From IMG/VR virus record IMGVR_UViG_3300026484_000295, positions 1-64,000 of that record: a stretch of DNA of 64,000 nt, one strand, 5' to 3'. Below the pieces are notes generated by a model. That model made no database searches. It had not been told where the DNA came from and saw only the letters and a list, made by a program, of their open reading frames with translations. The translations under genes and the position numbers were made by a program. Origin of the DNA: a virus. Of the stretch, positions 3,615 to 48,344 are shown piece by piece (within the stretch, counting starts at the first letter, position 1; every line of letters begins with the position of its first letter).

Positions 3615-3891
3615 ATCGTTAAAAAAATCTCAAAATATTATAATCCATTTGGTACCATCAGATCAATTTTGAGACCCATATCGCCACCCTCTAGAAAGGT
3701 TTGTGATATAGTAGGGTTATTGCTTGTTTGCTGACCATCAGCACAATCTATATTCCAAAGAATACACATTGTGTTGGTGTTTTTATTTATACATATATTA
3801 TACAAAAGTTTACTTTAAATTCATCTTAAATTTATTAAAATTTAGAAAAAATTGTTTTTTTAGAAAAATATAATACGTAAGAAGTGGGTAA

Positions 3892-3966
3892 TGGCTCCGG
3901 ATACTGGATTCGAACCAGTGACCAAATGATTAACAGTCATCTACTCTACCGCTGAGCTAATCCGGA
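3892..3966 (-). tRNA. tRNA-Asn(GTT)
   Basis: Anticodon loop CTGTTAA; encoded CCA. Confidence 0.95.
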
Positions 3967-5939: not shown

Positions 5940-7037
5940 ATGAATTTTAAAAAAATGATATTATTAGTTGTCAGCAGTTTATTAATAGTAGGATGTAATA
6001 TTGATAAAAACATTAACGATATTAATGATACTGATAAACCTGATGAGATAAGATGTAAAAATGCACCAAACGTTATTCTAGATAATGATAACTATGATCC
6101 AGATTGGTTGGTTACACTAGTAACAGGTTTGGCATTGGATAGGGATTGTAAGATTAATCTTATAGGTGTAATGATTAATGGAACCGATACACATAATAAA
6201 GCAGGTCTAATGTATAATACGGTGCTTACTTATTATGGAGTATCTGATAGAATTCCTATTGGTATTAATCATCATTATCAAATGAGAACAACACCTACGA
6301 AAGCAACATCAGATACACCATATATTGATCCAGATTTTAAGGGTACTCAAAAGAGAATAACAGACTTCCCAAGTGACGGATTATTAGATTCTGAAAGACA
6401 GGATGTACAAACAACTTTATGTGCCTTGCTAGAAAAACATGATAATATTATATATGTTACTGGAGGTCATTTACAAAATTTGCAAGCCCTTATTGAAACT
6501 AAGGAGTGTAATGGTCCTGAACTTATTAGAAAGAAAATAAAAAGATTTATTTTTGGAACTGGATATAACAAAGAAACAGAAGGAGAAGCAGAAATGAATT
6601 TTTCTGAGGGTAGGTATAATACTACAGCAGCATCAATTGCAGCTAATTCTGTATTTAATTCTGGTTTAGATGCGGAAGTTCCGTTTTGGTTCCCTCATGA
6701 TGGTTTTGATAGAAGTACAACATCATGTAGAATTGGAGATCAATATAGAGATTTAGTTCATACAACAAGTCCAATGGCTTTTGTCTATGCAATTGATACG
6801 TATGGGACTTGGGGAGATCATTGTATGGGAGATAGTGAAATTCTATTAGAAGCTGCTAATATATCTATTGAAGAAAAAATTGTTACCCCTAAAAGAGAAG
6901 TTTGTATAGAATTAAATTCTAAAAATGCGATTATTTATATTAATGAGGGCAAACATTGCAATCATTATATTAGAAGTATTAATGTTGGTGGCGAATTAAA
7001 AATAGTTGGTATTTTAAATCAATTATTAAAAGAATAA
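5940..7037 (+). CDS. Lipoprotein with nucleoside-hydrolase-like fold
   Basis: Lipobox LLIVGC; NVILDNDNYDPD resembles the IU-NH DxDxxxDD motif (degenerate); G...NL and E.NF motifs. Confidence 0.55.
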   Translation: MNFKKMILLVVSSLLIVGCNIDKNINDINDTDKPDEIRCKNAPNVILDNDNYDPDWLVTLVTGLALDRDCKINLIGVMINGTDTHNKAGLMYNTVLTYYGVSDRIPIGINHHYQMRTTPTKATSDTPYIDPDFKGTQKRITDFPSDGLLDSERQDVQTTLCALLEKHDNIIYVTGGHLQNLQALIETKECNGPELIRKKIKRFIFGTGYNKETEGEAEMNFSEGRYNTTAASIAANSVFNSGLDAEVPFWFPHDGFDRSTTSCRIGDQYRDLVHTTSPMAFVYAIDTYGTWGDHCMGDSEILLEAANISIEEKIVTPKREVCIELNSKNAIIYINEGKHCNHYIRSINVGGELKIVGILNQLLKE

Positions 7038-42855: not shown

Positions 42856-43821
42856 CTATTTATAGAGCCAAGATTTAATAATTTCTTTCTGTTTTTGACT
42901 AAGATCAACATAAAAAATTTCCACCTCAACGATAAAATCACCAATTTTATCTTTATTAATTGACTTAATACCTTTTTCTTTAAAAACTAATTTCTTTTTA
43001 TTTTTTATATCATTCATATCAACAGTAATCTGTTCATTAATACCATCAATAACAATTTCATCTTCTATTAAAATATCTAATACATTAAGTTTTAAAGTTT
43101 TATATATATCTAAACCATCTCTTCTAAATTCACTATCATTAATAATATTAAGTTCAATATATAAATCACCCCGTATATTATTAATTTTATTAGCCTTACC
43201 CCTCATAACTAGACGGGTATAATTGTCGACTCCTGATGGTATAACACAATTTAATTTTATAATCTCTTCTTTAAAACCTAGACCATTACAACTATTACAC
43301 GAATCTATTTTTGTATATCCTACACCTTTACAGTTTGTGCATAATATATTTGTGGTGATAAAACCACTTTTACTTTGAATAGTGCCATTGCCGTCACAAC
43401 TTGGACAGGGTTTAAAATTACCACCATACCCTGTACATACCTTACATTCAATCTTTTGCTTAAATTCAAATGGTATTTCAGTACCAACGATTGATTCATA
43501 GAAATTAATTTCCATTTGAATCACTTCATCTTTTTTAAAAGTTTTTTTTAATTTCTTTTTGATTTCTTTCTTTGGTTGACTAAAAATTGTATGTATATTT
43601 TTATGATTATTATAACTATAATAAAGTTTATCATAATCATAACGTTTTTGTGGATTTGAAAGAATATTATAAGCTTCATTAACTGTTTTAAAAATACTTT
43701 CAGAATTCTTATCTTTATTTAAATCCGGATGATATTTTTTTGCTAATTTTCTATACTTATATTTTATATCCTCTAATAAAGCATTAGGAGATATTTCTAA
43801 AATAGCATAATAATCAATCAT
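42856..43821 (-). CDS. dnaJ: DnaJ co-chaperone
   Basis: DYY.IL, YHPD, four CxxCxGxG repeats, GDLY; start ATG 43821 after GGAG. Confidence 0.93.
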   Translation of the reverse strand: MIDYYAILEISPNALLEDIKYKYRKLAKKYHPDLNKDKNSESIFKTVNEAYNILSNPQKRYDYDKLYYSYNNHKNIHTIFSQPKKEIKKKLKKTFKKDEVIQMEINFYESIVGTEIPFEFKQKIECKVCTGYGGNFKPCPSCDGNGTIQSKSGFITTNILCTNCKGVGYTKIDSCNSCNGLGFKEEIIKLNCVIPSGVDNYTRLVMRGKANKINNIRGDLYIELNIINDSEFRRDGLDIYKTLKLNVLDILIEDEIVIDGINEQITVDMNDIKNKKKLVFKEKGIKSINKDKIGDFIVEVEIFYVDLSQKQKEIIKSWLYK

Positions 43822-43898
43822 AGTTACTCCATTTTTAAGATATTTATTTAAGGGAATCAACATAAGTATTAATTTTGCAATATTTTTGCCATTTTAGT

Positions 43899-43925
43899 TT
43901 AAGTTTTTTGCACTATAACCGATAT
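43899..43925 (+). promoter_or_regulatory. Sigma-28 (FliA) promoter of the flagellin gene
   Basis: TTAAGTTT-N11-ACCGATAT versus consensus TAAAGTTT-N11-GCCGATAA. Confidence 0.8.
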
Positions 43926-43986
43926 TGTAATTGTAAGAGAAATATATTCTTTATTATATCATATTTCTCTTTAAATAAAACTTAAA

Positions 43987-44023
43987 TGGAAAAGGAAATT
44001 CCACTTTACACAATGGAGGTGTA
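43987..44023 (+). promoter_or_regulatory. Two CsrA-type ANGGA hairpins in the flagellin 5' UTR, the second containing the SD
   Basis: TGGAA-AAGGAAA-TTCCA (43987-44003) and TACAC-AATGGAG-GTGTA (44007-44023). Confidence 0.7.
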
Positions 44024-44025
44024 TT

Positions 44026-44829
44026 ATGTTTAATTTAGGACAAGCTCAATCAATTTTAGGAATTAACAATTCAAACGATCATATTTATAGATTGAATGAA
44101 CAGTTACAAACAGGTAAAAGAATCAACAAAGCAGCTGATGATGCTTCTGGGATGGCAATCGCAAATCAATTAAGATCACAAGCAAATGGTCTGGGACAAG
44201 CAATTAGAAATTCTAATGAAGCTATTTCATTAACAAATATTGCGGATGGTGCATTAGAAGAATATACAAAAATTATTATGGAAGTTAGAGATAAAGCTGC
44301 ACAAGCTATTTCAGATTCAAACTCTACTGAGTCTAGAACAGCACTTCAAAATGATATTAATGAATTAATTAAATCAGCTGAAGCTATAGCAAACGACACA
44401 TCATATAACGGTATTAAACTGTTAGACGGCACATTTACAAATAAAGTATTCCAAACTGGTGCATATAGTGGACAAACAACTTCAATCTCAATTTCAAGTA
44501 CTAAAACTGCTGATTTAGGTATCGATGGATTAACTGTTGATAGTGCTACAAACGCAGCAACTGCGTTAGATGATATTGATGCAGCATTGAAATCATTAGA
44601 TGGAATTAGAAGTGGTATTGGTTCTGTAACACAAGGTCTTGAATCAAAAGTTAGAAATATGGAAGCAACACAACAAAATGTTTTAGCAGCAGAATCTAAT
44701 ATTAGAGATGTTGATGAAGCAGCTGCAAAAGCAGAATTAGATAATTGGACAGTAAGAAATCAAGCATCAATGTTTGCATTTCAAATGGCTGCAAGACAGC
44801 AACAAAATATTTTAAGATTATTCCAATAA
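44026..44829 (+). CDS. Flagellin (minimal D0/D1 type)
   Basis: TGKRINKAADDASGMAIA, ADGAL, SR.ALQ..I, TSYNGIKLLDG.F, FQTGA, RSGIGS, AAESNIRDVD, QQNILRLFQ. Confidence 0.95.
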   Translation: MFNLGQAQSILGINNSNDHIYRLNEQLQTGKRINKAADDASGMAIANQLRSQANGLGQAIRNSNEAISLTNIADGALEEYTKIIMEVRDKAAQAISDSNSTESRTALQNDINELIKSAEAIANDTSYNGIKLLDGTFTNKVFQTGAYSGQTTSISISSTKTADLGIDGLTVDSATNAATALDDIDAALKSLDGIRSGIGSVTQGLESKVRNMEATQQNVLAAESNIRDVDEAAAKAELDNWTVRNQASMFAFQMAARQQQNILRLFQ

Positions 44830-44832
44830 TTA

Positions 44833-44863
44833 TTTAGGACGGGGTTAATAACCCCGTCCTAAA
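44833..44863 (+). terminator. Strong GC-rich hairpin after flagellin (attenuator or stabiliser; no U tract)
   Basis: TTTAGGACGGGGTT-AAT-AACCCCGTCCTAAA, perfect 14 bp. Confidence 0.65.
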
Positions 44864-44883
44864 ATACAAATAGGAGAATTATT

Positions 44884-45150
44884 ATGGGTGAATATGCAAA
44901 TAGTGTCGACAGTTTTTTAATACTATTTTACAACCAGTTATCAAAAAAAATGAGCGAACTAAAATCAATTAAAAATATTAAAGAAAGAGAAGAATTAAAA
45001 TCCAAAATGTTGGAAGCTTTAGATATGCTTACAATGAGTGCACAAGATGAAAAATTTAAAAATTTTTCAGAATTTTTGGCAACCAAAATCATTTTAAATA
45101 AATTTGATGAAGTAAAAGAAATATGTGATACTGTTAAACAAGGAGTTTAA
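44884..45150 (+). CDS. FliS-like flagellin chaperone (divergent, shortened)
   Basis: LILFYNQL...K.LEAL..L..S......F..FL......DEV..I...VK helical pattern matches FliS; directly follows flagellin. Confidence 0.55.
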   Translation: MGEYANSVDSFLILFYNQLSKKMSELKSIKNIKEREELKSKMLEALDMLTMSAQDEKFKNFSEFLATKIILNKFDEVKEICDTVKQGV

Positions 45151-45152
45151 TC

Positions 45153-45461
45153 ATGATAGATTCAATCGGAAAAATTAATCAAACGTTCAATATTCAAGCA
45201 CAAAGCAAAGTAAATATTCAACCGGAACAAAAAGCGGATTTGAGCAATTTAAATAATGAAATTCAAACAATCAATGAATTAGTTGAAAATAAAAATATCA
45301 AAGTGGAATTAAATGAAGATATTAATATGATACAAGTCAAAGAATTAGATAAAACAGGGGAAATAGTTTTAAAATCTATTCCACCTGAAGATTTTATAAA
45401 AAGGGTAAAATATTTCAAAGAAAATATATTACCAACTCTAATGATGGATGAAAGGGTCTAA
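45153..45461 (+). CDS. flaG: FlaG family protein
   Basis: NIKVELNED...QVKELDKTGEIVLKSIPPED...LMMDERV. Confidence 0.85.
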   Translation: MIDSIGKINQTFNIQAQSKVNIQPEQKADLSNLNNEIQTINELVENKNIKVELNEDINMIQVKELDKTGEIVLKSIPPEDFIKRVKYFKENILPTLMMDERV

Positions 45462-47984: not shown

Positions 47985-48344
47985 ATGAAAGTATTAGTAT
48001 TAGATGATAGCAAAACAATGTTAAGAATCATCACAAACACTTTAGCTAGAATAGGACATAAAGATGTTGTTACTGCTGAAGATGGGGTGCAAGGTTTAGA
48101 AAAGTTTAAAAATGATAAATTCGATATAATTTTAACCGATTGGAATATGCCAAATATGGATGGTTTAGCTTTTGTTAAAGCTGTACGAAAAATGAATGAT
48201 GATATACCAATCGTTATGATAACAACGGAGGGTGGAAAAGCTGAAGTAATTACAGCTTTAAAAGCTGGCGTGAACAATTATGTCGTTAAACCATTCACTC
48301 CACAAGTGCTTAAAGAAAAATTAAAAGATATACTTGGAGAATAA
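47985..48344 (+). CDS. cheY: Chemotaxis response regulator CheY
   Basis: LDDS, TDWNMP (phospho-Asp), ITTEGGKAEVITALKAGVNNYVVKPFTPQVLKEKL, closely matching Campylobacterota CheY as recalled. Confidence 0.93.
   Translation: MKVLVLDDSKTMLRIITNTLARIGHKDVVTAEDGVQGLEKFKNDKFDIILTDWNMPNMDGLAFVKAVRKMNDDIPIVMITTEGGKAEVITALKAGVNNYVVKPFTPQVLKEKLKDILGE

Follow-up and report, generated by a model that had tools for sequence, protein, structure and literature searches.

Flagella serve as phage receptors and immune targets, and they carry a large energy cost. The circuit that places flagellin under sigma-28 and CsrA-FliW is textbook knowledge. In B. subtilis, flagellin synthesis from hag is coupled to export via FliW, and the hag leader, reportedly described by Yakhnin in 2007 and Mukherjee in 2011, is said to combine a sigma-D promoter with the CsrA sites BS1 and BS2 and to work alongside a Hag-FliW-CsrA partner switch. 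The 5'UTR of C. jejuni flaA forms a pair of stem-loops (SL1 and SL2) that both carry ANGGA in the loop, with SL2 lying over the ribosome binding site (RBS) (Dugar et al. 2016, PMC4894983). CsrA binds both stem-loops and mutations of the GGA motifs derepress translation; the flaA mRNA also titrates CsrA, for which FliW is the main antagonist (PMC4894983). SELEX with C. jejuni CsrA returned the consensus mAwGGAs, usually in hairpin loops (PMC6692469). Phage-encoded flagellins are already documented in the TldR phages, temperate phages that remodel host flagella through a prophage flagellin, FliC-P, and an RNA-guided repressor, TldR (PMC10705468, PMC13418256).

The locus described here lies in a window, meaning the whole stretch of DNA that was analysed, made up of positions 1-64,000 of an IMG/VR virus record 172 kb long. 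The record is ~28% GC and ~61% complete. Its phage identity was evident from PHROG virion structural proteins (phrog_1645, E = 1.9e-87), a tail-fibre connector, a T4-type clamp loader, an NAD ligase and a head protease, and the window also contained cargo typical of huge phages, including DnaJ, a CCA-adding enzyme, an NMN adenylyltransferase and a split-intein piece of polB. The best explanation, which we hold with moderate confidence, is that the window is part of a T4-like huge phage with a captured flagellin/FliS-like/FlaG cassette, and that the flagellin gene appears to keep bacterial late-flagellar control, namely the sigma-28 promoter and CsrA/FliW leader of the host.

The phage flagellin gene (44026-44829, plus strand) encodes 267 aa comprising the N- and C-terminal conserved helical regions only (Pfam Flagellin_N, 5.7e-38; Flagellin_C, 1e-15). 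Its neighbours were dnaJ, orf88, flaG and the genes for NMN adenylyltransferase and the CCA-adding enzyme. The dnaJ gene (42856-43863, minus strand) is divergent from the flagellin gene, and the 162-nt gap between it and the flagellin start at 44026 houses the promoter match discussed below. Directly 3' of the flagellin stop codon lies a perfect GC-rich hairpin of 14 bp (44833-44863, plus strand) that has no U-tract on the plus strand. Strong post-stop hairpins were present in most relatives, and this one may serve as a 3' stabiliser or as a partial terminator before orf88-flaG.

The next gene, orf88 (44884-45150, plus strand), encodes a small four-helix protein of 88 aa that had no Pfam match and is FliS-like by fold only. 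Its AlphaFold model was a four-helix bundle (pLDDT 84.5), and FliS chaperones were among the best PDB matches in Foldseek (5xef, 6lea_A and 3k1i_A; TM 0.75-0.78, rmsd 2.3-2.4 Å, E ~0.4-1.3). Nine orf88 homologues searched against Pfam at E values up to 5 yielded neither FliS nor any common family. An ORF of ~90-100 aa followed the flagellin gene in most relatives. Lying as it does between the flagellin gene and flaG, orf88 may fairly be read as a candidate FliS-like chaperone gene. The flaG homologue itself (45153-45461, plus strand) matched Pfam FlaG at 2.9e-07, above the curated cut-off. A chaperone together with FlaG would fit a flagellin destined for export via the host flagellar apparatus.

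Two further features of the cassette and its surroundings were observed. A CheY-like single-domain response regulator (47985-48344, plus strand; Pfam Response_reg, 5e-30) is encoded 2.5 kb downstream of the flagellin cassette, with a counterpart in equal relative position in the relatives L043 and L045; a CheY encoded by a phage next to such a cassette could influence chemotaxis or the flagellar motor of the host. In addition, flagellins of the phage clade start with MF(N/S)(V/L)(S/G)QA.. and bacterial ones with MGFRINTN, and the phage proteins (44026-44070 in the window, and the relatives) are ~6 residues shorter ahead of the RIN.AADDASGMAI block than bacterial flagellins. The shorter N-terminus indicates that the N-terminal export and D0 segment is altered across the phage clade.

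Flagellin homologues of 267-269 aa were numerous (55-91% identity, on contigs of up to 496 kb), and many contigs of 1-5 kb encoded flagellins 60-82% identical to that of the window; 38 viral contigs with flagellin relatives were found. The close relatives were obtained through exact-protein look-ups. Scans of metagenome and genome contigs returned mostly distant bacterial flagellins and no further close phage relatives. INPHARED held no relative by DNA, where the sole matches were 86-nt stretches of dnaJ in Pseudomonas jumbo phages, and by protein only distant flagellins in unannotated phage records. The loci compared represent about a dozen distinct lineages, and the conservation counts given here are over 12. 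Like the window, the relatives had gene content of the huge-phage type (DnaJ, SmpB, FtsH, RecA, topoisomerase and CCA enzyme), and the cassette of flagellin, ~95-aa ORF and, often, FlaG occurred in varying neighbourhoods among them.

In a FastTree phylogeny of 142 flagellins, the phage proteins formed a single clade with a support of 100, placed in an unresolved fork with the flagellins of Campylobacterota and Thermodesulfobacteriota. Members of the phage clade range down to ~50% amino acid identity. From the sequences, the pattern fits one old capture followed by descent inside the phage lineage. A related huge-phage contig, L212, encodes a FliL homologue (6389-6810) a few kb downstream of its flagellin gene, which indicates that some members of the clade carry additional flagellar genes.

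An earlier first-pass annotation of the window had placed a host sigma-28 promoter and two CsrA-type hairpins upstream of a phage gene, which it did not name as a flagellin. Reading of the sequence bore out its promoter motif, TTAAGTTT-N11-ACCGATAT, in coordinates and letters: the sigma-28 (FliA)-type promoter spans 43899-43925 on the plus strand, with TTAAGTTT as the -35 element (43899-43906), an 11-nt spacer and ACCGATAT as the -10 element (43918-43925). We scored such sites over 14 positions of the -35 TAAA(GTTT) and -10 (G)CCGATA(A/T) octamers, ~11 nt apart. The promoter scored 13/14 and was the sole match at that level to TAAAGTTT-N10-12-xCCGATA in the 172-kb record. Weaker matches of 12/14 numbered ten, one of them the promoter site shifted by a base, and shuffles gave 2 to 15; with a single strong match and the weaker ones at the shuffle rate, the motif does not represent a general phage promoter class. 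In the 64-kb window, TAAR-N15-CCGATAT had one exact match, the promoter site, and three matches with one mismatch allowed against 4.15 expected, i.e. chance, while CCGATAT alone occurred six times against 5.3 expected, without enrichment. No sigma-70-like site was flagged on the plus strand of the 162-nt gap. Transcription from sigma-28 promoters usually starts 6-8 nt past the -10 element, and at this usual distance the predicted start falls at 43931-43933 (plus strand), giving a 5'UTR of ~95 nt.

The same kind of site accompanied the orthologous flagellin genes of the relatives. In 9/12 independent lineages, a sigma-28 match of 12-13/14 lay within 150 nt upstream of the flagellin start; among 400 random 150-nt windows drawn from these loci, that score was never or hardly ever attained (Fisher combined p ~3e-14). 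Overall, a sigma-28 match was found in 9-10 of the 12 lineages; L048 had a perfect -10 element (GCCGATAA) with a weak -35, and a sister clade (L003, L005) had a weaker match with a weak -10. The gene upstream of flagellin varied by lineage (dnaJ, small ORFs, a DNA methylase or an LRR protein). Since the motif was kept while the upstream neighbour differed, the promoter element travels with the flagellin gene.

Profile searches of the 172-kb record found no match to CsrA, FliW, FliS or Sigma70_r2, and the related virus records G001 (290 kb), G002 (complete, 155 kb, with terminal repeats) and G003 had no match to CsrA, FliW or Sigma70_r2. As the phage records searched gave no match to these regulators, CsrA, FliW, FliS and sigma-28 would have to come from the host. 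Alternatively, a phage-encoded sigma or another phage transcription factor might recognise the site instead of host FliA: huge T4-like phages have late transcription factors of their own that could escape detection by Pfam Sigma70_r2, and because the record is ~61% complete such a factor could sit in the missing part. However, neither the record nor its three relatives, one of them complete, had a Sigma70_r2 match, the motif occurred once in 172 kb and at the flagellin gene only, as no general phage promoter class would, and it equals the motif of bacterial flagellin genes, being found also at those of Sulfurimonas, Helicobacter and Sulfurospirillum. We regard recognition by a phage factor as highly improbable and take host sigma-28 as the probable reader of this promoter in what follows.

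The minimum free energy (MFE) fold of the predicted RNA from 43931 to 44040 contained three hairpins. The first, absent from the earlier annotation, is a 5'-proximal hairpin of 11 bp (43935-43971, plus strand; arms 43935-43945 and 43961-43971, 15-nt loop) that probably lends stability to the predicted mRNA at its 5' end. A 5'-proximal hairpin of different sequence was present in the relatives L045, L050, L043, L210, L046 and L005. The other two are the 5-bp hairpins with ANGGA loops that had been annotated before, the second containing the Shine-Dalgarno sequence (SD), and both stood in the MFE fold inside the originally annotated 43899-44025. HP1 (43987-44003, plus strand), a candidate upstream CsrA site, pairs UGGAA with UUCCA (43987-43991/43999-44003) around the loop AAGGAAA. 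HP2 (44007-44023, plus strand), a candidate RBS-occluding CsrA site, pairs UACAC with GUGUA (44007-44011/44019-44023) around the loop AAUGGAG, which holds the SD GGAGG (44015-44019) 7 nt ahead of the AUG.

The GGA motifs of the leader are thus at 43994-43996 in the HP1 loop and at 44015-44017 in the SD within the HP2 loop. Their spacing of 21 nt is inside the range that a CsrA dimer can bridge. Against the C. jejuni mAwGGAs consensus, HP2 (AAUGGAG) fits at 7/7 positions and HP1 (AAAGGAA) at 6/7. An Rfam scan of 43700-44950 at E values up to 1 found no family over the leader and only chance-level matches elsewhere. The leader as a whole was no more stable than its shuffles (z = -1.07, with 22/200 shuffles folding as well), and the case for the small hairpins therefore rests on comparison.

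HP1 was seen in ~5/12 phage lineages. Five stems of unrelated sequence present the loop AAGGAA within the phage clade (UGGAA/UUCCA, UAAA/UUUA, GGAAC/GUUC(U), GGAC/GUCC and CCUC/GAGG), with relatives L040, L042, L045/L050 and L005 among those that carry it. In an alignment (A3) of 28 phage and Campylobacterota leaders, 84% of HP1 cells were paired and 40 cells had changed on both sides; covariation was 0.72 against 0.24 in shuffles, with 0/500 shuffles reaching 0.72, and shifted registers paired at 24-43%. The pairing values are somewhat inflated, since the A[AT]GGA used for each leader was the one whose stem paired best. MAFFT placed the 1-nt difference in HP1-loop length of the window outside the loop, leaving the window and L002 one column out of register. 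As this misregister counts against the structure, the HP1 count is conservative for those two rows.

HP2 was assessed as at least four Watson-Crick pairs enclosing a loop of at most 9 nt with the SD GGA in it. A stem of this type surrounded the SD GGA in 8/12 lineages against 2.3 expected from flank shuffles (P ~2e-4), and its variants were UACAC/GUGUA, AUUAC/GUAAU, AGAC/GUCU, UCAC/GUGA and AACAC/GUGUU. The closest relative, L002 (91% amino acid identity), differed from the window by eight substitutions in 43899-44025, all of them in loops or linkers; both promoter boxes (-35 and -10), the stems and the GGA motifs were spared, and the three that fell within the 11-bp hairpin were all in its loop. 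By our own estimate, with the elements making up about half of the region, the chance of sparing all of them is ~0.004.

These patterns bear on two other accounts of the control region. Neutral decay would have wiped out 8-nt boxes in AT-rich intergenic DNA, which argues against the promoter and leader being a non-functional leftover of the horizontal transfer that brought flagellin into the phage, even though the elements are exactly those expected alongside a captured bacterial flagellin gene. The sigma-28 boxes were kept in 9-10 of 12 lineages of a clade that reaches ~50% amino acid identity, the stems show compensatory change, and the L002 substitutions spare every element, leaving such a leftover very unlikely.

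The second account accepts a working sigma-28 promoter and has the hairpins act without CsrA, through masking of the SD, through mRNA stability, or by recruiting some other RNA-binding factor or a small RNA. An extended SD (GGAGGUG) overlaps the 3' arm of HP2, and conservation there could partly reflect ribosome binding. Each hairpin is weak, the leader has shuffle-level stability, and several lineages lack HP1. Yet the GGA of HP2 is in the loop rather than the stem in those 8/12 lineages, and the AAGGAA loop is identical on five unrelated phage stems and recurs as AAGGA(A/T) in many bacterial flagellin leaders. A constant loop on unrelated stems is the pattern of a loop recognised by a protein, and it fits the CsrA consensus. 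Hairpins without CsrA are an unlikely alternative, and we continue to favour the combination of a sigma-28 promoter with CsrA-type sites.

Bacterial flagellin leaders had the same architecture. In Sulfurimonas, other Campylobacterales, Sulfurospirillum and Helicobacter, flagellin genes were preceded by TAAAGTTA-N11-(A/G)CCGATAT, then a hairpin with an AAGGA(A/T) loop, then a GGA-containing SD, and AAGGA(A/T) loops were widespread among Campylobacterota flagellin leaders. Thermodesulfobacteriota leaders had the same HP1 and an even closer SD context, (A/C)A(U/C)GGAGG. The first-pass annotation had read the layout as that of Campylobacter flaA leaders, with FliA transcription and translational control by CsrA/FliW. 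The match in design held up, while specificity to Campylobacter did not, given the Thermodesulfobacteriota leaders; judged by sequence, the sigma-28 and GGA-hairpin layout is a widespread bacterial design and not a Campylobacter signature. Its claim that a host promoter and CsrA-type hairpins had been retained agrees with our results: the gene that follows is a flagellin and is accompanied by the elements, and these show conservation and covariation across related phages and bacterial flagellin leaders.

Assignment of a host by leader layout alone was rejected, as the layout is also found in Thermodesulfobacteriota. The host is probably Sulfurimonas-like or another member of the Campylobacterota, based on the low GC content, on where the phage proteins fall in the flagellin tree and on the many flagellins of Sulfurimonas type from the same series of samples. 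Among candidate hosts, Sulfurimonas genomes contained FliW in 29/31, FliA above cut-off in 27/31 and CsrA in 3/5. Several Sulfurimonas flagellin leaders (L132, L133, L140, L143 and L207) also shared a second hairpin, AGAGC-(N3-5)-GCUCU followed by ACCC, between the AAGGA hairpin and the SD, and the phage leaders are without it.

A similar arrangement was observed on an unrelated virus. The 50.5-kb IMG/VR contig L020, whose flagellin is distant (~30% identity), has at 3860-3915 the layout of the window, with TAAAGTTT-N11-TCCGATAT, the hairpin AAAGC-AAGGAU-GCUUU and the SD hairpin AUAUC-ACGGAGG-AUAU. Other flagellins carried by phages may share this wiring, or host DNA may be part of the contig.

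Taken together, the elements suggest how phage flagellin might be controlled. Host RNA polymerase with sigma-28 (FliA) would initiate at ~43932 from the promoter at 43899-43925, producing a leader of ~95 nt with a protective 5' hairpin and two GGA-loop hairpins whose GGAs are 21 nt apart. A host CsrA dimer would bridge HP1 and HP2 and cover the SD, and host FliW would lift this block during flagellin export. Synthesis of phage flagellin would then be confined to host cells whose flagellar system is active and export-competent, and would keep step with secretion. From the sequence features, the flagellum-assembly checkpoint of the host probably switches on and doses the phage flagellin. The suggestion made previously that the gene fires only past completion of the hook-basal body is a reasonable one by analogy with the known circuit. 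Counting against the CsrA part, HP1 was absent from over half of the lineages and HP2 from a third.

Abundant phage flagellin mRNA could titrate CsrA as well. This sponge idea, also raised in the first-pass annotation, follows the flaA precedent and is speculative. A stronger version would make the transcript mainly a regulatory RNA: produced off numerous replicating phage genomes from a host sigma-28 promoter, its two-site leader and the FliW-binding flagellin it encodes would together soak up host CsrA and FliW. If so, the post-transcriptional network for host flagella and metabolism would be reprogrammed in infection or in a carrier state, and the phage would both sense and rewrite the motility state of its host. 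We think this quite improbable, and control of flagellin output by host sigma-28 and CsrA/FliW is the reading we retain.

T4-like phages often shut off host transcription, and so a promoter relying on host sigma would need a period in which the sigma-28 holoenzyme still works. Such a promoter squares better with a carrier or plasmid-like state than with rapid lytic growth.

What appears new here is that a huge-phage clade, probably infecting Campylobacterota, has a flagellin that seems to keep the full host control region under selection. None of the regulators had a match in the phage records searched. This clade of T4-like environmental phages seems to reach the flagellum by a different route than the TldR phages: they bring a minimal flagellin, a candidate chaperone and FlaG, and would leave control to host sigma-28 and, probably, CsrA-FliW. 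If true, the timing of a viral gene would follow the host's completion of an organelle, and viral mRNA could be a competitor for a global regulator of the host. The design of a sigma-28 promoter with two GGA hairpins appears conserved enough to outlast long residence in viral genomes, and could therefore be a usable marker for guessing host regulatory dependence.

Of the systems described at the outset, TldR/FliC-P phages share with this one a flagellin carried on a phage, presumably to change the host filament. They are temperate phages of Enterobacter that silence host fliC by TldR and a guide RNA, whereas the present one is a T4-like huge phage, the genes flanking its flagellin had no Pfam or NCBIfam match suggesting TnpB/TldR, and its control appears to plug into the host sigma-28/CsrA circuit. 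The B. subtilis hag leader resembles the phage leader in having two CsrA sites, candidate ones in the phage, with one over the SD. It differs in belonging to another phylum and in its chromosomal fliW-csrA operon, whereas the phage records searched matched neither FliW nor CsrA. The layout is shared with C. jejuni flaA, where, as here, a sigma-28-type promoter and two stem-loops with ANGGA in the loop, the second on the RBS, precede a flagellin. Compared with flaA, the gene in the window belongs to a phage; its leader is ~95 nt instead of 45 nt and has an extra 11-bp 5' hairpin and the SD GGAGG, and its flagellin is a minimal one of 267 aa with a shortened N-terminus.
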